A stretch of DNA of 64,000 nucleotides from an uncultured Candidatus Melainabacteria bacterium (lineage in GTDB: Bacteria > Cyanobacteriota > Vampirovibrionia > Gastranaerophilales > Gastranaerophilaceae). The notes below the pieces were generated by a model. It searched no databases, had not been told where the DNA came from, and saw only the letters and a program-made list of their open reading frames with translations. Shown here piece after piece: positions 17,496 through 36,402 of the stretch (positions are counted from its first letter, which is position 1; every line of letters begins with the position of its first letter). The translations under genes and the position numbers were made by a program. The stretch is from contig CANOTP010000003.1 of assembly GCA_947570135.1 (NCBI GenBank), positions 88,197 through 152,196 on the forward strand, in the 5' to 3' direction.

Positions 17496-17582
17496 GACCT
17501 CTTCCCAAATCAAAAAAATTATGCTATAATACAGCATAGTTTAAAAATGTAATTAATGCAATCGAAAAGGTAAAAGAAAAAA

Positions 17583-18179
17583 ATGACAGAAAGTGATATG
17601 GAAATTTTATTAAATGCAGGCGAAAACGGCGCTGAAGCTCCGAAAATTGTTGTCCCTATTGATGAAGATATGGACACTGTTAAATCAGATGCTCCAAATA
17701 CAGTTGACGAGTTAGCTATGGAGCTTGCAACAATCAAGCAATCAGCAAAGAAAATTGCTATTATCGGAAGCCGTAATCTTCCTATCACTCATCAGCAAAT
17801 GATTGAAACACTTTCAACCGCGCTTGTTATGCAAGGTAATACAATTATTACATCAGGCGGTTCCTCAGGTACTAACGCTGCTGCTATTCGCGGGGCTATG
17901 AAAGCTAATCCTGATAAGTTATGTGTAATTTTACCGCAAACTATCGGTCAGCAGCCGTCTGACGTTCAGGATCAGTTGATTGGCGTTCCTAATATTATTG
18001 AACACTCAGATCGTGCGATGATGACTTTAGCTGACGCTTCTCGCGTTTGTAATAGAGAAATTATTGATGAATGTAATCAGTTAATCTGTTTCCTTTCTCA
18101 TACGTCTAAAACTCTTCATAATGCTGTTCAGTATGCTGAAGAAGGTCATAAAGTTATCACTGTATTTTATTTAGACTAG
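17583..18179 (+). CDS. DprA/SLOG-like Rossmann-fold protein (DNA-processing protein A-like core only)
   Basis: IAIIGSRNLP..TIITSGGSSGTNAAAIRGAM resembles the DprA core (GSR...SG.A.G.DAAAH.GA). The usual flanking domains are absent, and about 60 aa at the N-terminus look disordered. Confidence 0.4.
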   Translation: MTESDMEILLNAGENGAEAPKIVVPIDEDMDTVKSDAPNTVDELAMELATIKQSAKKIAIIGSRNLPITHQQMIETLSTALVMQGNTIITSGGSSGTNAAAIRGAMKANPDKLCVILPQTIGQQPSDVQDQLIGVPNIIEHSDRAMMTLADASRVCNREIIDECNQLICFLSHTSKTLHNAVQYAEEGHKVITVFYLD

Positions 18180-18194
18180 TTTTAGGTTTTTTAT

Positions 18195-19355
18195 ATGAGT
18201 GAAAATTTAAAGAAATTAACCGGCAAAAATCCGAAAGATTTTGAGCCAGTAGCTTGTAGTCTTATAAATAATTCCGATACGGAACTTTTTTCTGAGCTTG
18301 TCGAAAAAGACGATTTCTTGTTTGATTTTGTCAAAAATAATGTTGCAAATCGTCTTGAAAAAGCTTGTAATAAGTCAAATTATCTTAATTTGCTTAATTT
18401 TTTAAAGTTTTATTCAACGTCTTATGAAGATTTTATCGTGTCAACGCTTGCAAGATTTGCCGATGAAGATTTGACGGACAGAATGCTTGAAATTTTTGAA
18501 GGCGGTACGGATGAAGAAAAAACATATTGTGCCAAGTTTTTTTCATATATTCAAGACCCGTTGGCACTTGATTTGTTAAGAAAAAACGCGTATTCGCAAT
18601 CTCCTGCGTTGGCTTCTAATTGCGCGTCTACTCTTGCACTTTTAGGAGATGAGGAGTCTTACATAGAAGCGCTTAAAAAGCTTGACTCAGATGATGAATT
18701 TACCTGTCTTGACGGTGTGAAATTTCTTGTTTCATACGGTAAAAAAGATTCTGTAGCTAAAATTATCGAGCTAATGAAAAAGTCTTCTTTTGCCGAAAAT
18801 ATCGCAGGTGAAATTCCTTATCTTTGTCCGTTATCAGAATTAAGTCAACAGGATTGTTTGTTTGTCTTAAATTCAATTATTAACGGACTTGGTGAAATCT
18901 TAGGGCTTTGTCAGGTATTTGATTTTGAGCTATACGAAAATCTTGAAAAACTTATAAACGGCAGCAAAACCTCAGAAAGTGCCGTGGTACTGCTTAATGC
19001 AAAAGATAAATTTGATACTTTAACGGAAAATGATGAGTACCTGTTTGATGAGTCAAAAGACACGAAACAAGAAGTTCTGGAGATTAAGAATTTGCTTGAT
19101 TCTGTTGATTTAGTTCCGCTTTATACTTTAGCCGATGATGAATTAAAGTCTGACGGGTTGTTTGTGTTTACGGCGCTGGAATTAACCGAAGATACTCAGA
19201 AAGTTCGCTCGCTTTTAACTTCTTCAAGACCTGCTGTTATTGTGAAATCGCTTGAGATTCTAAGACAATTTGATGAACTTAATGCTTCAGATAAAGAAAC
19301 TGCATTAAAGTTTATAGCAGATAAGAATATTATAAACATAATCTCTGCAATGTAA
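18195..19355 (+). CDS. HEAT-repeat-like protein
   Basis: 386-aa ORF with repeated helical D/E-rich units (..DEEKTYCAKFFSYIQDPLALDLLRKNAY..ALASNCASTLALLGDEESYIEAL..) typical of HEAT/PBS-lyase-type repeats. Confidence 0.45.
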   Translation: MSENLKKLTGKNPKDFEPVACSLINNSDTELFSELVEKDDFLFDFVKNNVANRLEKACNKSNYLNLLNFLKFYSTSYEDFIVSTLARFADEDLTDRMLEIFEGGTDEEKTYCAKFFSYIQDPLALDLLRKNAYSQSPALASNCASTLALLGDEESYIEALKKLDSDDEFTCLDGVKFLVSYGKKDSVAKIIELMKKSSFAENIAGEIPYLCPLSELSQQDCLFVLNSIINGLGEILGLCQVFDFELYENLEKLINGSKTSESAVVLLNAKDKFDTLTENDEYLFDESKDTKQEVLEIKNLLDSVDLVPLYTLADDELKSDGLFVFTALELTEDTQKVRSLLTSSRPAVIVKSLEILRQFDELNASDKETALKFIADKNIINIISAM

Positions 19356-19973
19356 TTAAAACTTGTATTTATAATTTTTCGGAAATCTCCAGCCATTTTG
19401 CTGTAATAATAAAGTACAGCCTCTCGGTTTAATTCCTGTTTCGCCTTTACGGGAAAATATAAACACATCCTGACAGTATGTGTTTGGCTTTTTGCTTCCG
19501 TTAACATCTATGTAGAACCAATCGACGTAAGAAGGTTTGCCGTCTGCGTCAAAGGTATTTCTCGGGAAAAATACGATAGTCCCGTCCATTAGTTGAAATA
19601 AAAGTCTGGAATCTCCCGATGATAAATTCCATTGAGCATTGGACCATTGTTTCCAAGACATATCAGCAGGATAGCCGTAATCAACTTGAGTTTTACAGAG
19701 TCTTACAGCGCGAAAATATGGCATAAAGTAGGTTTTCCAATACTCTTCAACATTCATTTCAGCTCCCGTGGGCCAGGAATCCATACTTCCGTTATCTGTT
19801 TCAGAAAGTCTTATGGAGTTTGTAATTGATGCGTACGATTTTTTTAATTGGGTTTCGATAGCTCTTTTTTTAGCATTGGCAATCAATCCCGGTATTGTAA
19901 TTGCGGCAACTACTCCGATAATCCCGAGTGTGATTAATACTTCAGCTAAAGTGAAACCTACTTTTTTAGACAT
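19356..19973 (-). CDS. Prepilin-type N-terminal domain protein, tail subfamily B
   Basis: MSKKVG/FTLAEVLITLGIIGVVAAITIP at the N-terminus. The C-terminal part reads YIDVNGSKKPNTYCQDVFIF..LLQQNGWRFPKNYKYKF. The start is taken at ATG 19973 (RBS GAAAGG). Its stop abuts the stop of 18195-19355. Confidence 0.85.
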   Translation of the reverse strand: MSKKVGFTLAEVLITLGIIGVVAAITIPGLIANAKKRAIETQLKKSYASITNSIRLSETDNGSMDSWPTGAEMNVEEYWKTYFMPYFRAVRLCKTQVDYGYPADMSWKQWSNAQWNLSSGDSRLLFQLMDGTIVFFPRNTFDADGKPSYVDWFYIDVNGSKKPNTYCQDVFIFSRKGETGIKPRGCTLLLQQNGWRFPKNYKYKF

Positions 19974-20036
19974 AATAAACCTTTCAATTTTTAATGTTTG
20001 CATTGTTTACTACAATAAATATATTGTAATAGACAT

Positions 20037-20065
20037 ATAATAAATTGTAGAAAAATTTTTGTCAA
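20037..20065 (-). promoter_or_regulatory. Candidate sigma70-type promoter of pilin gene 19356-19973
   Basis: The minus strand reads TTGACA (20065-20060), a 17-nt spacer, then TATTAT (20042-20037). Confidence 0.45.
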
Positions 20066-20082
20066 ATGATTAAAATTTTTCT

Positions 20083-20310
20083 ATGGTTAAAAAAGAAATC
20101 TTAAAAGAGTTTGGGAGGAACCTTAAGGCGGAACGAAATCGTGCAGGGTTATCGCAAGAACAGCTTGCCGAAAAAATCGGGGTTTCGTACGGGCAGGTTG
20201 TAGGGATGATAGAAAGAGGGGAAACAAATACTTCTTTGTCTGTAATTATCGGGATTATGAATGCGCTTGATTTAGATTTTGAAAAGTTGTATAATCGCCA
20301 TAAGTTCTAA
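20083..20310 (+). CDS. XRE-family HTH regulator, divergent partner of pilin 19356
   Basis: ..RNRAGLSQEQLAEKIGVSYGQVVGMIERGETNTSLSVIIGIMNALDLDFEKL fits the HTH_XRE pattern. TAAAAT (20071-20076) lies 6 nt before the ATG. Confidence 0.85.
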   Translation: MVKKEILKEFGRNLKAERNRAGLSQEQLAEKIGVSYGQVVGMIERGETNTSLSVIIGIMNALDLDFEKLYNRHKF

Positions 20311-20329
20311 GTTAATACAGGAGAATAAT

Positions 20330-20647
20330 ATGTTTAAATTGAATAATAAAAATAATGATATCCCCGAAGGTTTTAGACAAATCACAGACCAAGAAGCCGC
20401 TAATGCTTTTCTGCGTATGGATGTTGATAAAAGTTATACCATTACAAAAAACGAGTGGATGCTAAGTTGTTTAAAAATAATGGCTGATGATATCGGAAGC
20501 CTTGACAGAGAAGCTCCAGATGCGATTATGCAAAAGTTTCAAGAATTGTCAGATGAATTTGATAAATATGATTTAGACCACAATAAAGTAATCGATTATA
20601 TTGAATATAAGAATTTCTTAATGGATAATGTATTGATATCAGAGTGA
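20330..20647 (+). CDS. EF-hand calcium-binding domain protein
   Basis: A canonical EF loop DLDHNKVIDYIE and a second degenerate loop DVDKSYTITKNE are present. The start is taken at ATG 20330, after AGGAG. Confidence 0.6.
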   Translation: MFKLNNKNNDIPEGFRQITDQEAANAFLRMDVDKSYTITKNEWMLSCLKIMADDIGSLDREAPDAIMQKFQELSDEFDKYDLDHNKVIDYIEYKNFLMDNVLISE

Positions 20648-20736
20648 AATTCTTAAATATCTTAATAATTGCGCATATTATTTACTTTTGTAATATAATT
20701 GTTGATGTAAGATTAGGGAAAACAGAGGGTAAATAC

Positions 20737-21645
20737 ATGGTATTAAGATATGATTGCGGAGAGGTTATAACAGCAATGGTTACACCGATGGAAAAATCGG
20801 GAGCTATTGATTATGATAAAGTTGAGGTTTTAGCAAAGCATTTAATAGAAAACGGCAGTGATGCACTTTTGGTTGCGGGAACAACGGGTGAATCTCCTAC
20901 TTTAACAAATGAAGAAGAAATTGAACTTGTAAGTACAGTAAAAAGAGCTGTGGCTAACCGTGCAAAAATCATATTAGGAGCAGGTTCAAACTCAACAGCA
21001 TCAGCCTTTGAGTATTCAAAATTTGCTCAAAAAGAAGGAGTTGACGCAATTCTATCTGTTGTACCATACTACAACAAACCTAATCAAAAAGGTATGATTG
21101 AACACTTTTCAGCGGTAGCAGAATCAACTGATTTGCCGATAATTTTATACAATATCCCTTCAAGAACGGGTGTTAATATGTTACCAGAAACGGTTGCTTA
21201 TCTGGCTGAAAAATATTCAAATATTGTGGCGTTGAAACAAAGTTTTGCAGATATGGATAAAATAACCGAACTTAAGATGTTATGTCCTGATGATTTTGTA
21301 ATCTATTCAGGCGATGACAGCTTAACATTGCCAATGCTTTCACTTGGTGCGCACGGGGTAATTTCTGTGGCATCTCATCTTGTAGGTTCTGAAATTAAAT
21401 CAATGATTAGAAACTACAAAACAGGTGATGTTTTAGCTGCAAGAAATATGCACAAAAAATTATACCCTGTATTCAAAAACTTATTTATGGCGCCAAATCC
21501 GGTTCCTGTCAAGGCTGCGCTTGAATACAAAGGATTAATCGATTCTCATGTCAGAAAACCTTTAACAGGATTATCTGATGATGAAAAAAATACGTTATTC
21601 AGAATAATAGATGAGGTTAAATCAGAATTAAGTCAGGAAGACTAG
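20737..21645 (+). CDS. dapA: 4-hydroxy-tetrahydrodipicolinate synthase
   Basis: AMVTPM...GTTGESPTL...YNIPSRTG... and the active-site Lys region (ALKQS) are present. The start is taken at ATG 20737 instead of the track's upstream start. Confidence 0.93.
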   Translation: MVLRYDCGEVITAMVTPMEKSGAIDYDKVEVLAKHLIENGSDALLVAGTTGESPTLTNEEEIELVSTVKRAVANRAKIILGAGSNSTASAFEYSKFAQKEGVDAILSVVPYYNKPNQKGMIEHFSAVAESTDLPIILYNIPSRTGVNMLPETVAYLAEKYSNIVALKQSFADMDKITELKMLCPDDFVIYSGDDSLTLPMLSLGAHGVISVASHLVGSEIKSMIRNYKTGDVLAARNMHKKLYPVFKNLFMAPNPVPVKAALEYKGLIDSHVRKPLTGLSDDEKNTLFRIIDEVKSELSQED

Positions 21646-21732
21646 TTCAAATTAATTTCGTTTTAAATATTATAAAAAAATATTATAAAAGAAAATAATT
21701 AATAGTTAGAACACATATAAGAGGATGAAAAA

Positions 21733-23067
21733 TTGAAGAACAAAATTATTATGTTTTGGGTCATTGTAGTAATCGTGATAGGTTGCCTTTTCACGATTTA
21801 CAAAAAGCCTACAAAACTCGGACTTGATTTAGTCGGCGGTTCAAGAATCATGCTTGAAGCACGAACTACGGGTACTGTTCCGACGATTACGCAAGAAACA
21901 ATGAGCAGATTAAAAGTTGCAATCGAAAACCGTGTAAATAAACTCGGGGTTTCGGAAACTAGTGTTGCACAAGTCGGCGAAAAAAGACTTTTGGTTGAAA
22001 TTCCAAACATCACGGATTTAAAAGAAGCAGAGGCATTTTTAGGAAAAACTGCTTTGTTAGAATTTAAAGAACCTGTGTTTGATGAAAATGGTATACAAAA
22101 ATCAGACGAACACGGTGTGATGTGGAAACCGACAGATCCTGAGTTAACGGGTGAAGACTTAAAATCAGCTTCAATCGGTTCTGATCAAACAGGTCAATGG
22201 ACGGTATCGTTAGAATTTAACGGTTCTGGAGCCGATAAGTTCGGCAAATTAACCCAAAGACTTGTCGGAAAACAAATGGCGATATTTTTTGACGGAGATG
22301 AAATATCTGCTCCTGTTATAAGAGAAGCGATCTATGGCGGAAGAGCAGAAATCTCAGGAGGTTCAAGCGGGTTTGAATATGAAGAAGCAGAAAAAATGGT
22401 TAACCTGTTAAACGCAGGTGCGTTGCCTGTTCCGTCAGAAATCATTCAGGAAAATACCGTCGGACCTACTTTGGGTGCAGATAGTATCGAAAAATCAAAG
22501 TTTGCAGGTCTTTTAGGTATCGGACTTGTAATGTTGTTTATGGTATTTTACTACAGATTACCGGGCTTCATTGCTGACGTTGCGTTGGTAATTTACGCAC
22601 TGATTTTGTTCGCATTATTCAAGATAATTCCTGTAACCCTTACATTAGCCGGTATTGCAGGTTTCATTCTGTCAGTCGGTATGGCGGTTGACGCGAATAT
22701 CCTGATTTTTGAAAGAACAAAAGAAGAATTAAGAGCAGGCAGAAACCTGTTTACTGCAATCAATTCTGGTTTTGACAGAGCCTTTACAAGTATTTTCGAT
22801 TCAAATATGACAACTGTTTTGGCTTGTGTAATATTGTATTTCTTAGGTACAAGTGTTGTTAAAGGTTTTGCTTTAACTTTGGCATTAGGTGTAATTGTTT
22901 CAATGTTCACTGCAATTACGGTTACTAAAAACTTCATGCACTTAATCTTCGGTACGGGAGAATTAAAACATCCTGAGCTGTTCGGTCTTTCTAAAGACGA
23001 AATCGGTAAGGGTTATGAAGTTACGGAAACTAAACGTGAAAAAGCACGTTTCGGTATTTTAGACTAA
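21733..23067 (+). CDS. secD: Protein translocase subunit SecD
   Basis: 444-aa ORF (non-ATG start). LGLDLVGGSRIMLEA and a C-terminal 6-TM SecD/F domain are present. Confidence 0.93.
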   Translation: MKNKIIMFWVIVVIVIGCLFTIYKKPTKLGLDLVGGSRIMLEARTTGTVPTITQETMSRLKVAIENRVNKLGVSETSVAQVGEKRLLVEIPNITDLKEAEAFLGKTALLEFKEPVFDENGIQKSDEHGVMWKPTDPELTGEDLKSASIGSDQTGQWTVSLEFNGSGADKFGKLTQRLVGKQMAIFFDGDEISAPVIREAIYGGRAEISGGSSGFEYEEAEKMVNLLNAGALPVPSEIIQENTVGPTLGADSIEKSKFAGLLGIGLVMLFMVFYYRLPGFIADVALVIYALILFALFKIIPVTLTLAGIAGFILSVGMAVDANILIFERTKEELRAGRNLFTAINSGFDRAFTSIFDSNMTTVLACVILYFLGTSVVKGFALTLALGVIVSMFTAITVTKNFMHLIFGTGELKHPELFGLSKDEIGKGYEVTETKREKARFGILD

Positions 23068-23090
23068 GAAAGTATGAGGTAAATATAGAA

Positions 23091-24062
23091 ATGTTTAATT
23101 TTAATAAGACAGTACATGTCGTAAAATATAGAATATTATGGATGTGTTTATCAGCATTGTTATTACTACCGGGGATTGCGGCGATGATTTATTCAATGGT
23201 AACATATCCGACACATTCACCTGTTAAAGTCGGTATTGACTACACAGGCGGAACAATCCTGCAATACGGTGTTCAGGAAAATATTGATAATGCTGCAGTA
23301 GCAAAAACAAGAGAAGACTTGGATAAAGCAGGTGTTCAAAACCCTTATATTCAGATTTTGAATGTTAATCCTACTGCTGAAAATAATAATATCAAATCAA
23401 TTATTTCAATTAGAACAAAATTTATTGATGAAGGCTCAGAAGATGCTGCGCTGATTACAAAAACCGTACAAAGCGAATACAAAGGTGCTGAACTTATTCA
23501 GGTAAGTTCAGTTGGTCCGACATTAGGTAAAGAACTTTTCAGAATGTCACTTATTGCGTTGTCTCTTGCGATTTTAGGGATGATTATTTATATTTCGCTA
23601 AGATTTAAGTTCGATTACGCGCTAGCTGCGATATTAGGGCTTGTTCATGACGTTTTGTTTGTAGTCGGTGTATTTTCACTGCTTGGTATTTTCTGTAATG
23701 TTCAGGTTGACGGATTGTTTTTAACTGCAATTCTGACAATTATCGGTTTCTCAATAAATGATACGATTGTAACGTTTGACAGAATCCGTGAGAACTTACG
23801 TTATTACGGTAAGAAAATGACTTTTGGCGAAATTGTGGACGCATCAGTTAACCAAACACTTGCAAGAAGTATCAATACTTCCTTGACAGTGTTTATAACC
23901 CTTGCTGCTTTGTATTTCTTTGGCGGGGTAACAACAAGAGATTTTGTGCTGGCGATGATGCTTGGTGTAATCGTTGGTGTATATTCAAGTATTTTCTTCT
24001 GCAGTATGTTAGTTGATTTCTGGGAAGAAAAGAAAGAAAAACAAACTAAAGCTATGGCTTAA
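23091..24062 (+). CDS. secF: Protein translocase subunit SecF
   Basis: 323-aa ORF. GIDYTGGT and the SecF TM domain with INDTIVTFDRIREN are present. Confidence 0.93.
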   Translation: MFNFNKTVHVVKYRILWMCLSALLLLPGIAAMIYSMVTYPTHSPVKVGIDYTGGTILQYGVQENIDNAAVAKTREDLDKAGVQNPYIQILNVNPTAENNNIKSIISIRTKFIDEGSEDAALITKTVQSEYKGAELIQVSSVGPTLGKELFRMSLIALSLAILGMIIYISLRFKFDYALAAILGLVHDVLFVVGVFSLLGIFCNVQVDGLFLTAILTIIGFSINDTIVTFDRIRENLRYYGKKMTFGEIVDASVNQTLARSINTSLTVFITLAALYFFGGVTTRDFVLAMMLGVIVGVYSSIFFCSMLVDFWEEKKEKQTKAMA

Positions 24063-24111
24063 AAATAAAAGTACAAATTTGGTTAACATTTATGGCTGTT
24101 ATATTTTTTAT
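24063..24111. repeat. ~49-bp direct repeat, copy 1 (left flank of pilin/XRE module)
   Basis: AAATAAAAGTACAAATTTGGTTAACATTTATGGCTGTTATATTTTTTAT is identical, as read, to 25156-25204. Confidence 0.9.
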
Positions 24112-24125
24112 AACAGCTTTTTTTT
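24095..24125 (+). terminator. Intrinsic terminator of secF
   Basis: Stem GCTGTTATA / TATAACAGC with a T-rich loop, followed by T8. Confidence 0.7.
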
Positions 24126-24127
24126 AT

Positions 24128-24808
24128 TTAATGTAAATAATCCATATTTTTAAAATTCATTATATAATATGCACATCCCCAGCCGTTACTGTTTTTTGGT
24201 AAACAGGCTGTTTTGTAAGAAAATTGTGTGCTTAACGGCGAGCCTAAAGGAACTAAACCTGAACCTGCATAATATTCAAACCCGAACATATCAATTCCGA
24301 TTACATTAGGTTTCTTTTGTGCATTAACGTCAACATAAATCAGCATTGAGTTTTTACTGCTGTTGATACTGTCACCTTGAAGATAAGGTCCGCGCCACCA
24401 AATTGATGTCCCGTTTAGTAATACAACTTTATATGCCCAATCAGCTGTTGCATAATTCTGTAAAGGACTACCCGATTTATAATTATAAACCCCGTTATAA
24501 ATACATTTTCCCTTTGAATCATTTGTCCCGCAATCTAAAAGCAGTTTTAAGTGTGGTTTAAGATTGTTTGCAATAAGTTCAGCACAAGCTTTATCTTGTT
24601 TTATACAACCCCAACCATCAACAGTACCGTTATCTTCTTCTGCTAATCTTAACGCTCTTGATAAAATTGAATATGTTGCAGTTAATTGAGAAACGGTTCT
24701 TTTTTCGGTAATTTTTTGCATTATTGTCGACATTGTTATTGCAGCAACGATCCCGATTATTCCGAGGGTGATTAACACTTCAGCTAATGTAAAGCAACGT
24801 AGTTTCAT
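24128..24808 (-). CDS. Prepilin-type N-terminal domain protein (Cys at -1)
   Basis: MKLRC/FTLAEVLITLGIIGIVAAITMS at the N-terminus. The C-terminal part reads YVDVNAQKKPNVIGIDMFGFEY. Confidence 0.85.
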   Translation of the reverse strand: MKLRCFTLAEVLITLGIIGIVAAITMSTIMQKITEKRTVSQLTATYSILSRALRLAEEDNGTVDGWGCIKQDKACAELIANNLKPHLKLLLDCGTNDSKGKCIYNGVYNYKSGSPLQNYATADWAYKVVLLNGTSIWWRGPYLQGDSINSSKNSMLIYVDVNAQKKPNVIGIDMFGFEYYAGSGLVPLGSPLSTQFSYKTACLPKNSNGWGCAYYIMNFKNMDYLH

Positions 24809-24845
24809 AAATCTTTTCCATCTTATTTTATGTAGATGCTATCAT

Positions 24846-24874
24846 ATTATACTCAGTTGATAGTAATAAGTCAA
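24846..24874 (-). promoter_or_regulatory. Candidate sigma70-type promoter of pilin gene 24128-24808
   Basis: The minus strand reads TTGACT (24874-24869), a 17-nt spacer, then TATAAT (24851-24846). A plus-strand TATAAT (24883-24888) for the XRE gene lies 9 bp beyond the -35. Confidence 0.5.
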
Positions 24875-24891
24875 TATCATATTATAATGGT

Positions 24892-25128
24892 ATGAGTAAC
24901 GATTTTGGTATGATAAGTAATAAAATAAGTAAAAAAGTTAAACTTGAACGTAATAAAAAAGATTACTCACAGGAAGAATTGGCTTTTCGTGCAGGGATAA
25001 ATAAAAATACTATTTGGAAAATTGAAACAGGACAAGTTTCGCCAAATATCGTAACCCTTGAAAAAATTGCTTATGCTCTTGAAATTGATTTTGCAACATT
25101 AACTGATGTTTCAAAAGTTGAATTATAG
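24892..25128 (+). CDS. XRE-family HTH regulator, divergent partner of pilin 24128
   Basis: ..YSQEELAFRAGINKNTIWKIETGQVSPNIVTLEKIAYALEIDFATL fits HTH_XRE. The start is ambiguous (ATG 24892 or 24910). Confidence 0.85.
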   Translation: MSNDFGMISNKISKKVKLERNKKDYSQEELAFRAGINKNTIWKIETGQVSPNIVTLEKIAYALEIDFATLTDVSKVEL

Positions 25129-25155
25129 CCATTAAATATGAAAAACAAATGGTTT

Positions 25156-25204
25156 AAATAAAAGTACAAATTTGGTTAACATTTATGGCTGTTATATTTT
25201 TTAT
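25156..25204. repeat. ~49-bp direct repeat, copy 2 (right flank of pilin/XRE module)
   Basis: Identical to 24063-24111. It retains only the 5' arm and loop of the secF terminator hairpin and overlaps the stop codon of 25201-25419. Confidence 0.9.
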
Positions 25205-25419
25205 GGTTTGAAACCTTCTTTAGCGGAGATATAGCAACGGTGGATTCTGTTTATTGCAGTAGTTTTGGCGATAAGCGAATTGACGTGAGCTTTGGATGTA
25301 TTCTCACGTATACGGAGGATTCCAGCGATTTCACGGTTGCTGTAGCCTTTAACAACAAGACCAAGAACCTCAAACTCTCTTTTTGTAATATCAAGATACT
25401 CAGGTTCAAATTTTACCAT
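25201..25419 (-). CDS. LuxR/GerE-type HTH protein (stand-alone DNA-binding domain)
   Basis: ITKREFEVLGLVVKGYSNREIAGILRIRENTSKAHVNSL matches the LuxR_C-like HTH pattern. Confidence 0.75.
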   Translation of the reverse strand: MVKFEPEYLDITKREFEVLGLVVKGYSNREIAGILRIRENTSKAHVNSLIAKTTAINRIHRCYISAKEGFKP

Positions 25420-25585
25420 TTGTCGTCCTCGCTAAGTAACACATTAATACAATATATTGTTAAGCTTTATATTAAAAATGTTTGCATTATATCCTAAAAT
25501 AACTTATGGTTTTAAAAATGATTATGCTAGTCAACGAAGATGATAAAAATTTTAAGTAACCGAATTTTTGTCATATAATAGTTGT

Positions 25586-27289
25586 ATGAATAAGCTGAGT
25601 GCGGTATTAGTTTTGAATTTGGTTTTGTTTGCGTTGCCTTGTCAGGGCGCGTTTTTGGGTAATATTCCGCAAACAACTCTGCAAATTGCAAAAGACGCAG
25701 GGGATAATCAAAACCTTGGCATTCCGTCTTCAAAAATCGTAAGGGTCGGAATCGGAACCGATAATTTTGCATCTTACGAATGGAATTGTGCGCAAATCTA
25801 CGGCACAGGCGAGTTTGAGCTTTATAATAACAAAAACTACATAAATACCTACGATAGCGACAATGTTATTAAAGTTTCCATGGATGGAAATATTTTTGTT
25901 TTAAAAGACGTAGAAGATAACGTTATCGAAAAAGTTTCAGGACCGATTATTTTCAAGACGGATTTCGGATTTCTGGGGGTTAAGGGATTAAAACGTGCAG
26001 GGCACGATGCGATTTACCGTGGTCAATTGGAACTAGTTCCATCAACCAAATCAGGTAAGTTTCATATCGTTAATTCTATTGAACTTGAACAATATTTAAA
26101 AGGTGTTGTTCCCAACGAAATGCCTGTAAGTTTCGGGTTAGAAGCCTTGAAAGCTCAAAGTGTTGCGGCAAGAAATTATGTGCTTTCTCCTCGTGTTAAG
26201 GCTAATCCTAACTATGATGTTGTGGATTCTGTTGCAAGCCAGGTTTATTTTGGTGCGAACACCGAAAAAGAACTTTCTAACCGCGCAGTTAACGAAACCT
26301 CCGGGATTGTGGCATTATACGGTTGGGATTTGATTTTGGCTCAGTATTCTTCAACCGCGGGCGGGTACACGGAAAGCTTTGAGAATGCGTTTTCTGATCC
26401 TATAACAAAAAAATTTCCCTCAGACCCAAAGCCTTATTTGGTAGCAAAGCCTGATTATGATGATTTTAGACCCTTAAATACAGAAGAAGCGGCATCAAAA
26501 TTCTATAAATCAAAACCTAAGTCTTTTGATGTGAAATCTTCGTATTATCGTTGGGAGCGTGAGTGGAACGGACAAGAGATTCAGGACGCCATTCAGGCAA
26601 ATATCGCAGCGCAAAGTACAACAGGGTTTGTCTGTCCTGCAGTTCAAAAAGGCGAAACAATAGGAATTATTAAAGAATTAAAAGTTTTGCGCCGCGGGGA
26701 TTCGGGCAAGATTATGGAGCTTGAAATTGTAACCGATTGCGGCAGTTACGTTGTACAAAAAGAACTTGTTATAAGACGGCTTTTTACAAACAAAGGCAAG
26801 GCATTGCCAAGCGCAAATGTCGTGTTTGAACAGGAATATAACGAAAACGGTGATTTGATGTATGTAAAAGCTTACGGCGGCGGATTCGGACACGGTGTCG
26901 GAATGAGTCAGTACGGTGCAGGGTTTATGGGGAAAGAACTGAGTAAGTCGTTTGATGAAATCTTAAAACACTATTACTCAGGGATTACGCTCGCGACCGA
27001 GCCGAAAATCTTATCGCTGAAAATCGGGCAGGATAAGATTGTAAATAATTTCTACACAAAAAACGGTAAGGCTGTTTTAGTTGTTGATAACAAGTATAAA
27101 ACGGATTATATTGACGCTGTTATAAATAATGTTGATGAAAAGATTGAATTTGACACGACAACAAGGTATAATCAGATAGATTTATCAAAGTATTTAAGAT
27201 GCGGGATGAATATGGTGACATTTTTCTATCCTGTAACACAGGGCGGAAATAAGGCAGTCAGGATGTATATAGAATTGGCGGGAGAGTAA
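25586..27289 (+). CDS. SpoIID/LytB domain-containing protein
   Basis: A signal peptide is present, with YLKGVVPNEMP..EALKAQSVAARNY.. and GHGVGMSQYGA motifs. The start is taken at ATG 25586, 6 nt after TATAAT (25574-25579). Confidence 0.85.
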   Translation: MNKLSAVLVLNLVLFALPCQGAFLGNIPQTTLQIAKDAGDNQNLGIPSSKIVRVGIGTDNFASYEWNCAQIYGTGEFELYNNKNYINTYDSDNVIKVSMDGNIFVLKDVEDNVIEKVSGPIIFKTDFGFLGVKGLKRAGHDAIYRGQLELVPSTKSGKFHIVNSIELEQYLKGVVPNEMPVSFGLEALKAQSVAARNYVLSPRVKANPNYDVVDSVASQVYFGANTEKELSNRAVNETSGIVALYGWDLILAQYSSTAGGYTESFENAFSDPITKKFPSDPKPYLVAKPDYDDFRPLNTEEAASKFYKSKPKSFDVKSSYYRWEREWNGQEIQDAIQANIAAQSTTGFVCPAVQKGETIGIIKELKVLRRGDSGKIMELEIVTDCGSYVVQKELVIRRLFTNKGKALPSANVVFEQEYNENGDLMYVKAYGGGFGHGVGMSQYGAGFMGKELSKSFDEILKHYYSGITLATEPKILSLKIGQDKIVNNFYTKNGKAVLVVDNKYKTDYIDAVINNVDEKIEFDTTTRYNQIDLSKYLRCGMNMVTFFYPVTQGGNKAVRMYIELAGE

Positions 27290-28884
27290 TGACAGAGGCA
27301 GCACAAGATAAAACACCGAGCGTTTTAAAAGCGGCATGGCTTATTGCGGTTGTAACTATTGTAAGTAAGCTTATCGGGTTTGTTAGGGATATTATTATCG
27401 CAAATTACTATGGTGCGTCAATGGTTTCCGATGCTTATTATTACGCATACCAGATTCCTTCATTATCCTTAATTTTGCTTGGCGGAGTCGGTGGGCCGTT
27501 TCACAGTGCAACTGTTGCCGTTTTTTCAAAACTTATCCCAAATTTAAACGATAAACCGTCAGATGAGGTTAACAGACTTTATTCAACTTTTATGAATGCT
27601 ACGATAATCTTTTTCCTTATCTTGTCTGCCGTGATATTTTTATTTCCTAAGCGGATAATGGGACTTATAATCTCGGGTGGCTCGTTTGAGATGATTAATC
27701 TTGCGGCGGCGCATTTAAAAATAATGACACCGCTTCTCGTAATTGGCGGAATTGTCGGGATTTATTACGGGATTCTGATTATCTACAGGCAATTTATGCT
27801 TCCTAACCTGTCGCCGATTGTAATGAGTTTAGCGATTATCGGGGTTGTTATGGCTGTGCCGAACGATCAAAAAGGTTATTCGCTTGCCTGGGCAACAACA
27901 ATCGGTGCTGTGTTGCAGCTTATTATTCAATATCCGAATATAAGAAAGCTCGGGTACCGCCTGAAACCGTGTTTTGAATTTACTAATAATCCTGAATTTA
28001 AATCAATTTGCGAACTTTTATTCCCTGCTGTTTTAAGTTCTACTGTTGGGCAAATTCATATTTATGTTGATATGTTTTTCACCTCATCAATCTCAGAAGG
28101 TGCTTGGACAGCGATTGGATATGCCAATAGAGTTTTTCAGTTCCCTGTAGGAATTTTAGTTACGGCGTTTTTGGTTCCGCTTTTTCCGATTTTTGCAAAA
28201 CTTGTTGCCGATAATGATTTTGACGGTATAAGAAAATATTTTAATAAAGGTGTCGGGGTATTGTTTTTCGGTGCAATCCCGATAATTATCGGAATCCTTG
28301 TTGTAGGTATGGACGCTGTAAGGCTTGTGTTTGAACACGGTGTGTTTGATTCAAATGCAACGTTTATGGTGACAGAAGCGCTGTGGTTCTTATCTGTTTC
28401 AATTATTCCTTATGTATTTAGGGATTCTATTACAAGGGTTTATTATTCGTTTAATGACTCGGCAACACCGTTTGTTGTTGCGTTTTCTTCCATTGTATTA
28501 AAACTTTTATTAAACTGGGTTTTAATTTCAAAAATGCACTTTGGTATCGGCGGGATTACCTTATCTACGTCACTTGTAACTTTGTTTAATGCTTGTGTTC
28601 TTGGCGTATTAATGACTAAAAAAATGAAAATGGATTATAAATCTTTGTTTACTAACTTGTTTAAAATGATTATATCGGGTATAATAACTTTTGGAGTATG
28701 TTTGTTATGTGCTTATTGGTATGATAAGTTTATAACCTTACCTAAAATTCCGTTTGAAATAGTAAAAATCGGTTTAATAGCAATAGTATGCTTGGGTATT
28801 TATGTTCCGCTGAATTTATTATTTAAAATGGAATATGCAGGAGAGTTGTTTAATAGATTGTCAGCAAAATTTATACGGAAATAA
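27289..28884 (+). CDS. murJ: Lipid II flippase MurJ (MviN family)
   Basis: 531-aa polytopic ORF with the typical N-terminal region SKLIGFVRDIIIANYYGAS..DAYYYAYQIP. Confidence 0.9.
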   Translation: MTEAAQDKTPSVLKAAWLIAVVTIVSKLIGFVRDIIIANYYGASMVSDAYYYAYQIPSLSLILLGGVGGPFHSATVAVFSKLIPNLNDKPSDEVNRLYSTFMNATIIFFLILSAVIFLFPKRIMGLIISGGSFEMINLAAAHLKIMTPLLVIGGIVGIYYGILIIYRQFMLPNLSPIVMSLAIIGVVMAVPNDQKGYSLAWATTIGAVLQLIIQYPNIRKLGYRLKPCFEFTNNPEFKSICELLFPAVLSSTVGQIHIYVDMFFTSSISEGAWTAIGYANRVFQFPVGILVTAFLVPLFPIFAKLVADNDFDGIRKYFNKGVGVLFFGAIPIIIGILVVGMDAVRLVFEHGVFDSNATFMVTEALWFLSVSIIPYVFRDSITRVYYSFNDSATPFVVAFSSIVLKLLLNWVLISKMHFGIGGITLSTSLVTLFNACVLGVLMTKKMKMDYKSLFTNLFKMIISGIITFGVCLLCAYWYDKFITLPKIPFEIVKIGLIAIVCLGIYVPLNLLFKMEYAGELFNRLSAKFIRK

Positions 28885-28924
28885 GAGAATATACAAACAG
28901 TTAAAACAGAGTTAGAGTAGAGTT

Positions 28925-29281
28925 ATGCAGTTACGAGTCGGTCAAAGTCTTGATAGTAGCAGAGTACGCTTGGATTTTAAGAAAAGTCCGAGTACGCCTG
29001 ACAGTGCTCCAAGTTATGAAATCGAAAAAACAAGAGCTGATGAATTTGTTAAAAAATATAACTCGCAAGGTGCAAAGTTATTTACCATAACACAAGTATC
29101 GGCTAATTTAGGCGCATTACTTGGTTGTATTGCAGGTTTTCACAAACGCTCGGTTAAGATGATGTTTGGAGGAGCCTTTGCAGGGCTTGTGTCAGGCTTT
29201 CTTTTAGGAACTGGGTATACTGTTTATAAGAAAAACTCTCTTATGAAAGAGTATGATGTAAAACAGATTTCTAAAAAATAA
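28925..29281 (+). CDS. Hypothetical membrane protein
   Basis: 118-aa ORF with two Gly-rich hydrophobic segments. No family recognised. Confidence 0.4.
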   Translation: MQLRVGQSLDSSRVRLDFKKSPSTPDSAPSYEIEKTRADEFVKKYNSQGAKLFTITQVSANLGALLGCIAGFHKRSVKMMFGGAFAGLVSGFLLGTGYTVYKKNSLMKEYDVKQISKK

Positions 29282-29303
29282 AATAGGATTTAGGGAAGTT
29301 TTA

Positions 29304-29753
29304 ATGAAAGAGAAATTTAAGCCAAATATTGATGAGCGCCCTGTAATGATTGTACTAGGTGTTGCTGCATTTTATTTGATTATTGAGTTTTTTATCGTTT
29401 ATCTGTTTTTACTTCATAGAATTAATTTTGTTGTAATGTTTGTTTCTTCTGTTTTATTTATGCTGATTTACCTGCCGAGGTTTTTGATTATTTATAAGCT
29501 TAAAACTCGAGACAGGGTTAAAGTCATTGATGAATTTCTGATGATAAATGATATCGGAGTTGCGCTTTGTGATATTCTGGACTTTAAGGTTGATGTTGAA
29601 AAACCGCAGGTAGTGTTTTTTATCAATAATAAAATGGTAGTGTTTCAGCAGGCAAAATTTCACCTGAAACTCAAAAACGGCATAACAACATTTACCGTTG
29701 TCGGCGGTGAAAAAATCAGATTACTTGAAGAATTTTTGAGATGTGCTTCTTAA
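29304..29753 (+). CDS. Hypothetical membrane protein
   Basis: 149-aa ORF with two N-terminal TM helices. Its stop abuts the cysS stop. Confidence 0.45.
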   Translation: MKEKFKPNIDERPVMIVLGVAAFYLIIEFFIVYLFLLHRINFVVMFVSSVLFMLIYLPRFLIIYKLKTRDRVKVIDEFLMINDIGVALCDILDFKVDVEKPQVVFFINNKMVVFQQAKFHLKLKNGITTFTVVGGEKIRLLEEFLRCAS

Positions 29754-31127
29754 TTATTTACCCTCAACGGTAGTTCCGTCTTTGGTGTCTTTCAGGACAA
29801 TTCCGACTTCATCCAGTGCGATTCTGATTTTGTCTGCGATATCCCAGTTTTTCTCGGCACGGGCTTGTTTACGAAGTTCAAGGATTTCTTCCATTGAACC
29901 AAAAGTTTGTCCTAGACGTTCTGAAACTTTTTCAACACCTTTTTTCAAGTCGTCTTCTGATAAACCTGCTTTTTCGAAGGTGAAACCTAAAACTGTTCCG
30001 AGTTTATAAAGAATTGTGTAAGCATCTTTTTCATCCTTGTTTGCGCGGGTTGCAAGATCAAACAGGATAGCAAGCGCTTTTGATGTGTTCAAATCCTCAT
30101 CCATTGCTTCAACAAATGCTTTGTATTCATCTGTTGTTGTAATATCAAGTTCTTCGTTTATAGGTGTTTGTTTAGCGTTTGTAAGACGTTTTGCGCCTGC
30201 TTTTGCGGCGGTTAATGCTTCATCCGAAAATTCTACAGGCATTCTGTAATGATTTGTGAGGATGAATAATCTTAACGTATTAGCATCATAATTTTTTAAC
30301 ATATCATCTATTGTTAAAAAATTACCCAACGATTTTGACATTTTTTCTTTGTTAATAGTCACAAAACCGTTATGGAGCCAGTAATTTACGAATTTGCATC
30401 CGTTAGCGCATTCTGATTGAGCGATTTCGTTTTCGTGGTGCGGGAAGATTAAGTCTGCCCCGCCTGCGTGGATATCAATGGTTTTACCCAAGTATTTTCT
30501 GCTCATCGCAGAACACTCAATGTGCCAGCCCGGGCGTCCGACACCCCAAGGTGAATTGTACCCAAATTTTTCATCACGTTTCCACAGCGCAAAGTCAAGC
30601 GGATCTTCTTTTAAATCTCCGACTTCAATTCTTGCACCGCTTTCCAGTTGGTCAATTGGCTGTTTTGAAAGATAACCGTAGCGAGAGAATTTTTTTACTC
30701 TGAAATATACATCTCCGTCAGCTTCGTAAGCATAACCGTTTGCGATTAAGTCTTTTACGATAGAAATCATTTCACCTAATGTTTTTGTTGCAAAAGGTTC
30801 AATATCAGGGGATAAAGTGTTCAGAGCTTTCATTGAGTTTGAAAACTGTTTGTACCAGTATTGTGAAACTTCTGTCGGCGTTTTTCCTTCTTTTTCTGCT
30901 TTTTTTAGGATTTTATCATCAACATCGGTTACGTTGCGGCAGTATGTTACGTCATATCCGCGAAATTTTAGGTATCTGTATAAAATATCCCAGGTTATAT
31001 AACATCTTGCGTGTCCTAAGTGTGCGTGATCATATACGGTCGGACCGCAAACGTACATTTTAACTTTATTATCTTCAATTGGTTTAAATTCTTCGACAGT
31101 GTTTGTATAAGAGTTAAATAATCTCAT
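29754..31127 (-). CDS. cysS: Cysteine--tRNA ligase
   Basis: 457-aa ORF with a HIGH-type motif (HLGHAR) and KMSKS. Confidence 0.96.
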   Translation of the reverse strand: MRLFNSYTNTVEEFKPIEDNKVKMYVCGPTVYDHAHLGHARCYITWDILYRYLKFRGYDVTYCRNVTDVDDKILKKAEKEGKTPTEVSQYWYKQFSNSMKALNTLSPDIEPFATKTLGEMISIVKDLIANGYAYEADGDVYFRVKKFSRYGYLSKQPIDQLESGARIEVGDLKEDPLDFALWKRDEKFGYNSPWGVGRPGWHIECSAMSRKYLGKTIDIHAGGADLIFPHHENEIAQSECANGCKFVNYWLHNGFVTINKEKMSKSLGNFLTIDDMLKNYDANTLRLFILTNHYRMPVEFSDEALTAAKAGAKRLTNAKQTPINEELDITTTDEYKAFVEAMDEDLNTSKALAILFDLATRANKDEKDAYTILYKLGTVLGFTFEKAGLSEDDLKKGVEKVSERLGQTFGSMEEILELRKQARAEKNWDIADKIRIALDEVGIVLKDTKDGTTVEGK

Positions 31128-31275
31128 AAAAATCCCTCATTTCTTACATAAATTTTACTACAAACAAATAAATTTTATTAACAAATGTAAATCAATATAA
31201 ATTTTATAGCAATTATTAAAAGAAACAATACTTAAATATTATATACGATTTATATAAAAATATGAGGATAATTAC

Positions 31276-32016
31276 ATGAGTGAAGTTTCAAAAACAAGTG
31301 GTGTAGTACAAGCAAGAGGAACAGCAAAAGCAGGTGCAAAGGCCGGTGCTAAGCCGAAAAAAACTAAAGAACCTGTTAATATGAAATCAAACAAGACAAC
31401 GCAGGTAAAAGTGCCGCAAAAACCTGTGCCAAAAATTATTACGGTGACTGCGGGTTCAGGATGCAGCTTGGGTTATCTTGCAGAAGTTCATAATACAACT
31501 GTTGCCGAAATTATGAAGCTTAATCCTGATATTAAAAATGCTGATAATATTAGGGAAGGTCAAAGAATAAAAGTCAGTCATATTGATCAGAAGGAGCTTG
31601 ATGCTTATAATGCTTACCAGACAGAGTTGTCTAATCAACAATGGGAAGCTGAAAAAGCTGCAAGGTTAAAGAAAAAAATTGAAGCTGCTACAGCAGGTAT
31701 TCAGCAAGCTACAGAAATGGGATATGATGAATACTATAAATTTGCTATAAATCAAAAAACAGGTGAAGTGACTATTACCTTGAAAACAGATAAAGAACTT
31801 GGAGATATTAGAAAAGGTCTTGGCTTGCCACGCGGACACTTACGTTCAAAAAATCCAAAGATTATGGAAAAATACAGCGCAGGTAATCTTTATGACATTG
31901 ATAATTATGTCAGAATAAAAGACTGGGACGACGCGGAAGCTAAAAAAGGTGATAAATTTGTTATTGACGGTGATTGTATTAATCCTAAAAAAGGCTTTTT
32001 CGGCGGCAGATACTAA
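31276..32016 (+). CDS. LysM domain-containing protein
   Basis: ITVTAGSGCSLGYLAEVHNTTVAEIMKLNPDIKNADNIREGQRIKV is a LysM motif. The N-terminus is basic and low-complexity. Confidence 0.65.
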   Translation: MSEVSKTSGVVQARGTAKAGAKAGAKPKKTKEPVNMKSNKTTQVKVPQKPVPKIITVTAGSGCSLGYLAEVHNTTVAEIMKLNPDIKNADNIREGQRIKVSHIDQKELDAYNAYQTELSNQQWEAEKAARLKKKIEAATAGIQQATEMGYDEYYKFAINQKTGEVTITLKTDKELGDIRKGLGLPRGHLRSKNPKIMEKYSAGNLYDIDNYVRIKDWDDAEAKKGDKFVIDGDCINPKKGFFGGRY

Positions 32017-32645
32017 GAAAATAAATCAAAGATTTCAAATATCGGTTGGAGTAATTCTTCGACCGATATTTTTTCGTCAAGTTCAAGCGTGATTATCGGG
32101 ATATTGCGTTCAACTCCCGCCCAGGTACCGAAACTTCCGGGGGTCGGATAGCCGATACTCGGTTCTACGGGATATTTTATTATATCTGAAATCATTTGCG
32201 CGATATCTTCTGCGGGTCCGTCGTAGTTTACGATTTTATATGGGGCGTGAAGAGTTAAAATAAGTTTTGGCTGATATTTTTCTATAACATCTATGACAAA
32301 TCTTGTTTCAATCTCGCTAACTGGAGCGGTTCCGCTGTAGTAATCCGTAGGGTTGGAGCCTGCTTTACTTGTGTCTTGCCCCCAGTTTTTTGTCGGAAAA
32401 TTCCTGTTTATATCGACATTGTTTGCGTTAACCCGTGTATTTAACCCCATTCCGTCAGGGTTCAGGCATGGGATAAAAAGTTTGCCTTGGGAGTTTTTAT
32501 CTGCTAAGTATTTTTCAATTAAAAACTTCCCCTGAGGCTCATCACCATGTACAACACCTATTATAAGTGTTTGGTTTTTGTCAGGGGTGCCGATAAGTTC
32601 AACAGTGTTGCCAAGCTTTGTTTTTACCGAATTTAATACTTGCAT
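32013..32645 (-). CDS. M14-family zinc carboxypeptidase-like protein (murein peptide amidase MpaA-like)
   Basis: HGDEPQG (HxxE zinc ligands), NPDG and NRNFP motifs are present. Confidence 0.7.
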   Translation of the reverse strand: MQVLNSVKTKLGNTVELIGTPDKNQTLIIGVVHGDEPQGKFLIEKYLADKNSQGKLFIPCLNPDGMGLNTRVNANNVDINRNFPTKNWGQDTSKAGSNPTDYYSGTAPVSEIETRFVIDVIEKYQPKLILTLHAPYKIVNYDGPAEDIAQMISDIIKYPVEPSIGYPTPGSFGTWAGVERNIPIITLELDEKISVEELLQPIFEIFDLFS

Positions 32646-33602: not shown

Positions 33603-34270
33603 TTACTTCCAAGGATAATCAGTTGGGATTTCCCAGCCGTTTCTTTGAATTAAAACTGCACAATACAGACCGTCACCTGTTTTTGAACAACTTCGTTTGA
33701 TTTCTTCATTTGTCTTGTTTGCTCCGTACGGAAATACTGAGCTGTTTTCTTCCTGTCTGTATAAAAAGAAAACATCTTTGCCGTGTGTATTAGGGCCTTG
33801 GCTTCCGTTTATGTCAATGATAATCATTCGGTCATTGTTTTCGGAAAGAGCATTTGTTATGACTGAATATGTATATAAAAGTCCGTCCATAGTGATAAAC
33901 GGACGTCGATTTTGATACACGGGAGAATTATAATTATTGTATGTTCCATTCATGTGTTTCCATACGTTACCTGGGGCTTTATATCCGCATTCCATATTTG
34001 TTTTGCAGATTTTTGTTATTTTCATGTATGGAGAAAGATATTTGTTAATAAAAGTTATTGGCTCTAATGTTTTATCCCAGGTGTCAATTTCACCGTTTTC
34101 TTCTTCAGACATTCTTATTGTCTGATTGATTGTTGAAACCGCTTTTTTTAACTTTGCTGCAGTACTTTTTTTTGATGTGTTGCAATAAGATTAGGTATAG
34201 TCATTGTTGCAACAACACCGATTATTCCAAGAGTAATCAGCACCTCTGCCAATGTAAATGCCCTTTTCAA
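33603..34270 (-). pseudogene. Prepilin-like gene interrupted by a frameshift at an A8 tract (candidate phase-variable gene)
   Basis: GGAGG-N6-TTG encodes (M)KRAFTLAEVLITLGIIGVVATMTIPNLIATHQKK, then the frame is lost at A8 (34166-34173). With A9 it would read ..HQKKSTAAKLKKAVSTINQTIRMSEEENG.., continuous with track ORF 33603-34112 (..IIDINGSQGPNTHGKDVFFLY..LIQRNGWEIPTDYPWK). Confidence 0.75.
34166..34173 (-). repeat. A8 homopolymer (coding strand) at the frameshift point of the pilin gene
   Basis: T8 on the plus strand. The ORF track confirms that the N- and C-terminal parts are in different frames. Confidence 0.75.
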
Positions 34271-34285
34271 AACAAACCTCCTTAT

Positions 34286-34303: not shown

Positions 34304-34313
34304 GATAGTTTTT

Positions 34314-36382: not shown

Positions 36383-36402
36383 TATATTGAAAGGTGATAT
36401 TT

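Follow-up and report, generated by a model that had tools for sequence, protein, structure and literature searches.

When DNA homologous to the chromosome on one side only was integrated in Escherichia coli, re-circularised molecules had entered by a single crossover in 56 of 60 integrants, and duplications of the homologous locus, 109–950 bp long, lie on both sides of the insert in such integrants (PMC3240628). Homology-facilitated illegitimate recombination (HFIR) has been described during natural transformation of Acinetobacter baylyi, Streptococcus pneumoniae and Pseudomonas stutzeri; its illegitimate junctions usually show 3–10 bp of microhomology (PMC3240628). Here we describe a locus of an uncultured gut Candidatus Melainabacteria bacterium (Gastranaerophilales) in which two perfect 49-nt direct repeats enclose a pilin-like gene and its divergent XRE-family helix-turn-helix (HTH) partner. 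The locus lies between secF and a LuxR-type HTH gene (luxR) on contig CANOTP010000003.1, within the 64-kb stretch of DNA that was analysed as a whole and is called the window below. We hold with moderate confidence that the two 49-mers are a recombination scar, left by host recombination which captured DNA homologous to the chromosome on the secF side only.

The locus is like a Campbell-type single-crossover integration (e.g. the lacZ duplications in PMC3240628) in that direct copies of the target locus flank the insert, in that no element-encoded recombinase is needed and in that the arrangement is reversible by recombination between the repeats. It is unlike it in the extent of perfect homology, which is 49 nt here compared with 109–950 bp in the experiments (PMC3240628), and in that one copy is without 16 native nucleotides and has a degenerate extension; moreover, the event is inferred from sequence. 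With HFIR it has in common about 1 kb of foreign DNA beside a homologous anchor, junctions at candidate short microhomologies, and a lineage that has DprA and many pilin-like genes. Classical HFIR, however, couples insertion with a deletion in the recipient, whereas recipient sequence is duplicated here, so that the illegitimate end must land upstream of the anchor end; in addition, competence of Gastranaerophilales is only hypothetical.

The window contains exactly two occurrences of the 49-mer AAATAAAAGTACAAATTTGGTTAACATTTATGGCTGTTATATTTTTTAT, the copies R1 and R2, without any mismatch (the coordinates of all features are collected in Table 1). It is the sole long perfect direct repeat of the 64 kb, and no match was obtained in 100 shuffles with up to three mismatches permitted. 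The copies are 1,093 nt apart. According to the open reading frames (ORFs) and profile matches, the 1,044 nt inside contain the pilin-like gene and the XRE gene and nothing else. An earlier note on this DNA had reported the exact pair and its content, and both are confirmed. The same holds for its description of the right-hand ends, which agrees with terminator calls and folds: R1 runs on into a full intrinsic terminator, and R2 has only the 5' arm and the loop before it enters the luxR stop codon.

The terminator hairpin next to R1 was found in both the minimum free energy and the centroid fold. It is the sole terminator-like site among the secF–pilin–XRE–luxR intergenic regions, the second terminator-like call in 23800–25700 being located inside spoIID. 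R1 is homologous to the single R-like sequence that follows secF in L034 and L058, the nearest relatives of this species, and the hairpin is common to all three. The 3' arm of the hairpin and its T-run make up a 16-nt segment, ‘x’, which follows R1 and is missing after R2; it is taken as native from L034 and L058, which read ...TATAACAGCCTTTTTTATGG. The octamer TTTTTTAT is present at two places, the end of R and the end of ‘x’. R2 runs from TTTTTTAT straight into TTATGGTTT/GGTTT, the luxR stop, which is a junction of T-run and luxR as in L034. No terminator was detected at R2, where the folds of the region were no better than those of shuffles and gave no alternative terminator structure. Rfam had no match in 23800–25700.

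To the left of R2, a further 18 nt still resemble the sequence beside R1, though imperfectly; they form a relic of the secF tail that is in frame and retains a stop codon. The last 27 nt of secF (24036–24062, GAAAAACAAACTAAAGCTATGGCTTAA) encode EKQTKAMA*, and a portion of them is echoed beside R2. Compared with this tail, the relic has an in-frame gap of 9 nt, one C>T change and a spacer that is shorter by 2 nt; the 10-mer GAAAAACAAA is common to both. When the alignment was anchored beside R, scores as good as this were reached by 28 of 20,000 random 18-mers from the window and by 47 of 20,000 AT-rich ones (p ~0.0014–0.0024). At every position that differs (3' arm, relic gap, C>T change, spacer) R1 has the ancestral state and R2 the derived state. 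Because the 16 nt of ‘x’ follow R1 only and the secF-tail relic precedes R2, the duplicated tract would originally have measured about 76–92 nt, or R1 and R2 may be two alleles of the secF–luxR junction placed in tandem. Candidate junction microhomologies are GAAAAACAAA or TTAAA for the left side of R2 and TTTTTTAT for its right side.

A scan of genome collections with SecF yielded 39 species-level loci; those with informative titles are all metagenome-assembled genomes (MAGs) of gut Gastranaerophilales/Melainabacteria, a few labels being wrong. The closest are L034, a MAG from a mouse-gut catalogue (SecF 95% identical), and L058 (SecF 94%). Positions 15085–24124 and 25564–31245 of the window are colinear with both at about 85% nucleotide identity. 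Between these blocks, L034 and L058 have 288 nt only, which consist of the secF stop, about 30 nt of R-like sequence, the full hairpin, the T-run and luxR. Their hairpin reads GGCTGTTATA-TTTT-TATAACAGCC and is followed by TTTTTTA-TGG, in which TTA is their luxR stop, overlapping the T-run. The pilin/XRE module is absent from both genomes, which therefore represent the empty site, with one R-like sequence and an intact hairpin, that according to the earlier note would confirm an insertion. The segment specific to the window is 24125–25563 and thus larger than the module, as it also comprises a divergent luxR allele and the luxR–spoIID spacer. Sliding identity to the sister species is 0.14–0.6 up to about position 25550 and 0.8–0.9 thereafter, and the BLAST blocks end and begin at 24124 and 25564. 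A second break in the colinear alignment concerns window positions 31245–32017 compared with 15003–15705 of L034, and covers a LysM-domain gene (31276–32016).

The earlier note had proposed that the module was acquired or duplicated as a unit by an event that duplicated 49 bp. The empty site in L034 and L058 supports an indel unit. The second part requires revision: with ‘x’ after R1 only and a secF-tail relic before R2, a simple duplication of 49 bp does not describe the locus. As far as can be read from the sequence, the two copies are neither a clean target-site duplication nor an att pair, because the native 16 nt of 3' arm and T-run follow the left copy only, because similarity continues imperfectly for 18 nt left of R2, and because neither an integrase or transposase among the ORFs scanned nor repeats at other pilin-like ORFs were found. 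The latter search covered the window and 43 related loci (44 sources, ~0.7 Mb), with 18 pilin-like ORFs defined by a strict motif, and looked for exact direct repeats of at least 18 nt; no other pilin-like ORF is bracketed by one. A simple target-site duplication, or integration into a site of the L034 type, would place the 3' arm after the right-hand copy, and it is observed after the left-hand one.

The native secF–luxR junction, as the sister species have preserved it, consists of secF tail, spacer, terminator hairpin, T-run and luxR stop. Of this junction, the left part, from the secF tail through the spacer to the 5' arm and the loop, is present twice in this species, intact after secF and decayed or allelic beyond the 1.04-kb pilin/XRE pair. 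We propose that the pair itself was captured from DNA which shared homology with the chromosome on the secF side only. By one route, a fragment would have circularised and then undergone a single homologous crossover, leaving the homologous stretch duplicated on both sides of the insert. By another, HFIR, the illegitimate end would have landed upstream of the anchor. Both routes yield the order secF, R, insert, R, luxR. Host recombination would do the work in either case without a transposase or integrase, and neither a recombinase gene nor a recurrent site is then expected. The hairpin 3' arm may have been lost from R2 when the junction formed at the 8-nt microhomology TTTTTTAT, by a later slippage deletion of 16 nt, or through a pre-existing allele.

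One-sided homology is to be expected because the region 3' of secF is a synteny breakpoint in related species. Natural transformation is a plausible route of capture, since DprA is encoded in this lineage, in the window itself, and a ComM-like gene is found in a relative. As in a Campbell scar, R1 is the native 3' flank of secF, and R2 together with the relic echoes the secF tail and its flank. We infer that the module was probably gained in this species and not lost from the sister clade.

Most of the 39 related species have a rearranged 3' flank of secF, and several of them have other pilin/HTH modules there, in either orientation. An independent indel distinguishes L022 and L023, which are 96% identical over 9 kb up to the secF stop and 93–95% identical downstream. 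In L022 a 1,092-bp xre/pilin module follows directly 3' of the secF stop (8972–10063); at its place L023 has 120 nt (8972–9091), including a different terminator. No flanking repeats at all were found at this indel. From the single locus in the window the earlier note had generalised that modules of this kind move. Neither the L022/L023 indel nor the scan of the other pilin-like ORFs, a check that the note had itself suggested, supports that generalisation in terms of flanking repeats.

Two side observations concern the same region. In many related species (L021–L059) the dapA–secD–secF block is inverted relative to an EF-hand gene (in L022 also to an xre20-like gene), and synteny breaks repeatedly at the secF 3' flank, where nearly all lineages differ in their terminator. 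Further, an element resembling repetitive extragenic palindromes, GTCATTCTGA ... TCAGAATGAC, occurs repeatedly in related genomes, at terminators as well as at the ends of Logan contigs (L021 at about 9000–9060, L080 at about 6710–6750, and the first 30 nt of L078 and L079). This palindrome is absent from the window.

Several points weigh against a capture by one-sided homology. No donor lineage was found, and among 5.8 billion proteins there is no pilin outside this species with more than 60% identity. A homology of 49 nt is short for a RecA-dependent single crossover. All three differences to the left of ‘x’ fall into the 27-nt tail and none into the 49-nt core, a distribution which is only marginally likely under random decay (~0.045 by estimate), so that one has to assume gene conversion or two alleles that already existed. 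A significant inverted repeat at the module ends is left unexplained, as is the strong divergence of the adjacent luxR allele. Finally, the polarity of gain versus loss is a matter of parsimony, with two empty-site genomes only.

With the opposite polarity, the module would be ancestral at the site and lost in the sister clade, and the identity of the two 49-mers would be due to later ectopic gene conversion or templated repair. The common ancestor would have had secF, pilin, XRE and luxR. L034 and L058 would have deleted the pair between the TTTTTTAT octamers (24120–24127 and 25197–25204), and conversion or repair would have copied the secF flank into the XRE–luxR spacer. A deletion between the two octamers does yield exactly the hairpin/T-run/luxR junction of the L034 type. 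The lack of a pilin donor among the 5.8 billion proteins also fits, and so does L071, where the closest pilin homologue (P0003, 60% identity) is encoded just upstream of aroE–spoIID–murJ, which makes orthologous conservation possible. L071 is a more distant relative (SpoIID 75%, MurJ 90%). Against this history, the HTH partner in its gene order, topA, pilin, HTH gene, aroE, spoIID, is unrelated to the XRE protein of the window (XRE24). The closer outgroups L080 and L081 (SpoIID 84% and 81%) have a comM-like gene, and no pilin gene, upstream of spoIID. This history further needs a gain, a loss and a separate event making a perfect 49-nt copy, and repeats as old as the split, at 15% divergence, should differ, whereas 49 of 49 positions are identical. 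We consider it unlikely.

Two origins within the genome were rejected. A recent duplication of another pilin module does not agree with the best pilin paralogue in the window, which is 32% identical. The same identity, and the fact that R1, not R2, keeps the native right-hand sequence, also led us to discard a model in which the whole pil19...secF block was first duplicated in tandem and a deletion then followed.

The structure was also examined in other assemblies of the species. Exact-protein look-ups recovered the path secF–R–pilin–XRE–R–luxR in at least seven SPAdes (ENA) assemblies and one GenBank MAG, including ERZ15043444, ERZ14864640, ERZ14864686, ERZ14864037, ERZ14864675, ERZ14864633 and GCA_951802035.1. 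These contigs are up to 71 kb long, have a coverage of about 3–7.5x and are 99.9–100% identical to the window. A Logan contig from a strain that is about 0.3% divergent contains the right-hand half, namely luxR, R2, XRE and the start of the pilin gene. Logan contigs (k=31) end 30 nt into the repeat, and the piece between the repeats is an identical 1,104-nt unitig in at least 20 samples, which is how a true 49-nt repeat acts in a de Bruijn graph. The earlier note had allowed for an assembly artefact by a collapsed or duplicated contig end, and a repeat that was joined wrongly would be another such cause. The breaks of the Logan contigs at the repeat, and two low-coverage contigs that take alternative paths, could be quoted for such an artefact. 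It is nevertheless extremely improbable given the same path in so many assemblies, and in strains that differ by up to 0.3%.

The two low-coverage contigs bear on the question of mobility. L070 (ERZ14230265 NODE_17940; k-mer coverage 2.0) has secF tail, R and luxR, the ‘empty’ topology. L015 (ERZ781215 NODE_44599; k-mer coverage 1.56) has XRE, relic, R, 3' arm and pilin, the topology of a circle or tandem. L070 is chimeric, as its left 646 nt belong to an unrelated high-GC histidine-kinase gene joined at the low-complexity 20-mer GAAAAGAAAGAAAAACAAAC, and its source strain is among the more divergent ones seen (three single-nucleotide polymorphisms in 1.5 kb). Both contigs can be explained as mis-traversal of the repeat during assembly, because a 49-nt repeat is collapsed at small SPAdes k (21/33). 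In robust contigs of the species the exact-protein look-ups (SecF, pilin, LuxR, XRE and variants) revealed no empty site, only occupied ones. A presence/absence polymorphism deduced from contig counts (LuxR 65, XRE 23, pilin 19, flanking genes 69–83) was dismissed, the counts being confounded by the collapsed 1,104-nt unitig.

In topology the locus corresponds to attL–cargo–attR. It resembles attL/attR elements (tyrosine and serine recombinase islands, integron cassettes) in having identical direct repeats around a small cargo, with 49 of 49 core positions identical, and a single copy of the core in relatives such as L034 and L058. The module could be a non-autonomous mobile cassette in which R is att-like, the recombinase is encoded elsewhere, a 1,093-bp circle is formed and pilin variants move between strains. 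L070 and L015 show the reciprocal empty and circle products predicted for it, L070 in a more divergent strain. Against this stand the k-mer coverage of 1.6–2.0, the chimeric nature of L070 and the possible mis-traversal. Unlike an att or attC site, the repeat is an ordinary terminator flank without such structure, and site-specific integration into a target of the L034 type would leave the hairpin 3' arm behind the right copy instead of the left one. No recombinase is encoded nearby: integrase and transposase families were not detected among the window ORFs scanned (mostly the larger ones), in the module (pilin-like and HTH_3 only) or in its flanks. A recombinase encoded outside the window could act in trans. 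R does not recur elsewhere in the window, and it had no match in viral and JGI metagenome collections. Collections of phages, plasmids and viral contigs gave no match for R, for the module, for the pilin or for the XRE relative, and no other pilin-like ORF in the 44 sources is repeat-bracketed. Proteins identical to the pilin and the XRE protein occur in public assemblies in this secF–luxR context only, as a single copy. We regard such a cassette as improbable.

A more specific proposal, for which we see only a slim chance, is that R is a functional recombination site at which an unlinked recombinase excises the promoter-carrying pilin/XRE cassette as a 1,093-bp circle and re-inserts it beside terminators. 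If true, Gastranaerophilales would have a cassette system that shuffles a very large pilin-like (DUF6613) repertoire, and L070 and L015 would be real excision products.

The inverted repeat at the module ends raises the question of a transposon. It is imperfect, with complementarity at 31 of 42 positions, a value not reached by any of 700 random or AT-matched segment pairs (maximum 27). The ends of the other five modules in the window have a complementarity of 22–24. As in transposons with terminal inverted repeats and target-site duplications, direct repeats lie outside the arms, at distances of 6 and 10 nt, so the module might be an element with imperfect terminal inverted repeats of about 42 nt whose insertion gave a 49-nt target-site duplication. 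Unlike such transposons, it is single-copy and has no transposase, either in the module or among the window ORFs scanned. The arms are mostly in the coding 3' ends of both genes, where the reading frames differ, so that the similarity is at the DNA level. The left end of the element would carry the native 3' arm and T-run which are already present in the empty site, so that the duplication is not clean, and other modules have neither inverted nor direct repeats. To our knowledge, a target-site duplication of 49 nt would be longer than any known, the longest being about 24–29 bp, in the IS1202 group. An origin of this kind is very unlikely.

Table 1. Positions of the repeats, genes and other features at the secF–luxR locus and of pilin-like regions in the 64-kb window.
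Feature	Position	Strand	Description
secF	23091..24062	+	323 aa; TIGR00966 SecF 277.8 bits, PF02355
Repeat copy 1 (R1)	24063..24111	+	Native secF 3' flank: spacer, terminator hairpin 5' arm and loop; exact match
Intrinsic terminator hairpin GGCTGTTATA / TATAACAGCT + T8	24094..24118	+	Between convergent secF and pilin gene
‘x’, 16 nt AACAGCTTTTTTTTAT, hairpin 3' arm and T-run	24112..24127	+	Native, read from sequence; 3' of R1, missing 3' of R2
Inverted repeat, left arm	24118..24159		Pilin gene end and T-run
Pilin-like gene, module cargo	24128..24808	-	226 aa; prepilin N-terminal FTLAEVLITLGIIG motif; relatives in DUF6613
Divergent pilin/XRE promoter region	24809..24891		Consensus matches only: - strand 24874 to 24846 11/12, + strand 24857–24885 10/12
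XRE-family HTH gene, divergent partner of pilin	24892..25128	+	78 aa; PF01381 HTH_3, E = 7e-12
Inverted repeat, right arm	25104..25145		Last 8 XRE codons, stop, 17 nt downstream
secF 3'-end relic	25140..25155	+	With first AA of R2 reads GAAAAACAAATGGTTTAA (25140–25157) = EKQMV*
Repeat copy 2 (R2)	25156..25204	+	Hairpin 5' arm and loop only; last bases hold luxR stop (25201–25203)
GerE/LuxR-type HTH gene (luxR)	25201..25419	-	72 aa; PF00196, E = 1.6e-11; stop 25201–25203 inside R2
luxR–spoIID intergenic region	25420..25563		Unalignable to sister species; right end of window-specific segment
Pilin-like gene/module regions	~5052–6098, 10447–11270, 19356–20310, 24128–25128, 33603–34597, 36394–37086, 54626–55342, 61720–62767		

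The cargo protein starts with MKLRCFTLAEVLITLGIIGIVAAIT and has the features of a type IV pilin-like protein: a prepilin cleavage/methylation motif precedes a hydrophobic helix, and TIGR02532, the prepilin N-terminal domain, scores 16.8 bits at a cut-off of 16.3. More than 6,900 homologues were found among the 5.8 billion proteins, many of them with PF07963 or PF20318/DUF6613. The closest one outside this species is 60% identical, with none between 60% and 100%. The XRE protein has relatives with 88–91% identity (P0245–P0247) on other contigs of up to 42 kb, compared with none above 60% for the pilin. Either the pilin would evolve far faster than its regulator, or the partners may have been exchanged.

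The luxR gene is the positional orthologue of the gene in the sister species and is followed by spoIID and then murJ. It is only 53–56% identical to L034 and L058 at the protein level and about 66% at the DNA level, whereas the flanking DNA is about 85% identical and the proteins encoded there 91–95%. This divergence suggests that luxR and its upstream spacer (25201–25563) may represent a separate allele replacement at the same hotspot. A search for LuxR homologues gave a single match. By eye only, L034 and L058 appear much closer to each other at luxR and the spacer (9029–9316). A 41-nt stretch with the core AATGTTTGCAT is found upstream of luxR (25462–25502) and, 76% similar, upstream of the pilin gene at 19356–20003 (19978–20018); the two genes may have an operator or promoter element in common.

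The window belongs to the core chromosome. It encodes SHMT, GyrA, PriA, UvrD, DprA, DapA, SecDF, SpoIID, MurJ, CysS, FtsY and NusB, and further S1, IspH, RibBA, PBP1 and AroC. The genes from 7 kb upstream to 5 kb downstream of the module are housekeeping genes, and the statement in the earlier note that no transposase or integrase is nearby is correct for all window ORFs scanned. At least seven genes or gene fragments of the pilin-like type (DUF6613 / N_methyl) are dispersed among the housekeeping genes. Most of them adjoin a small divergent gene, and an HTH domain was confirmed for only some of the pairs. Neither flanking direct repeats nor similarity of the ends was found for the other modules in the window. 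Several of the pilin-like genes look frameshifted or truncated (around 11341, 34258 and 61720–62444). A literature search returned no paper on DUF6613, and the papers mentioning Gastranaerophilales together with pilin do not describe the family.

The insertion would have changed the transcriptional layout of the locus. The old bidirectional terminator is now located between secF and the pilin gene and serves both of them, and the XRE gene and luxR converge on R2 without a terminator. Because of this convergence, read-through with antisense transcription between the two regulators is likely. The 49-nt repeats are substrates for ordinary repeat recombination, by which the module can be deleted as a unit of 1,093 bp. 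They make the module a natural deletion hotspot, so that the locus could serve as a marker of strain heterogeneity. Taken alone, the locus looks like an ordinary indel scar, a further example of a type of event already known and no new kind of mobile element, and it would be important only if active excision were seen at the read level. The module appears to have arrived by host recombination and not as a self-mobile element. The locus is a clean, datable example of a small accessory module, here a surface or pilin-like gene together with a dedicated regulator, entering the streamlined chromosome of an uncultured gut Melainabacteria species at a terminator between convergent housekeeping genes.

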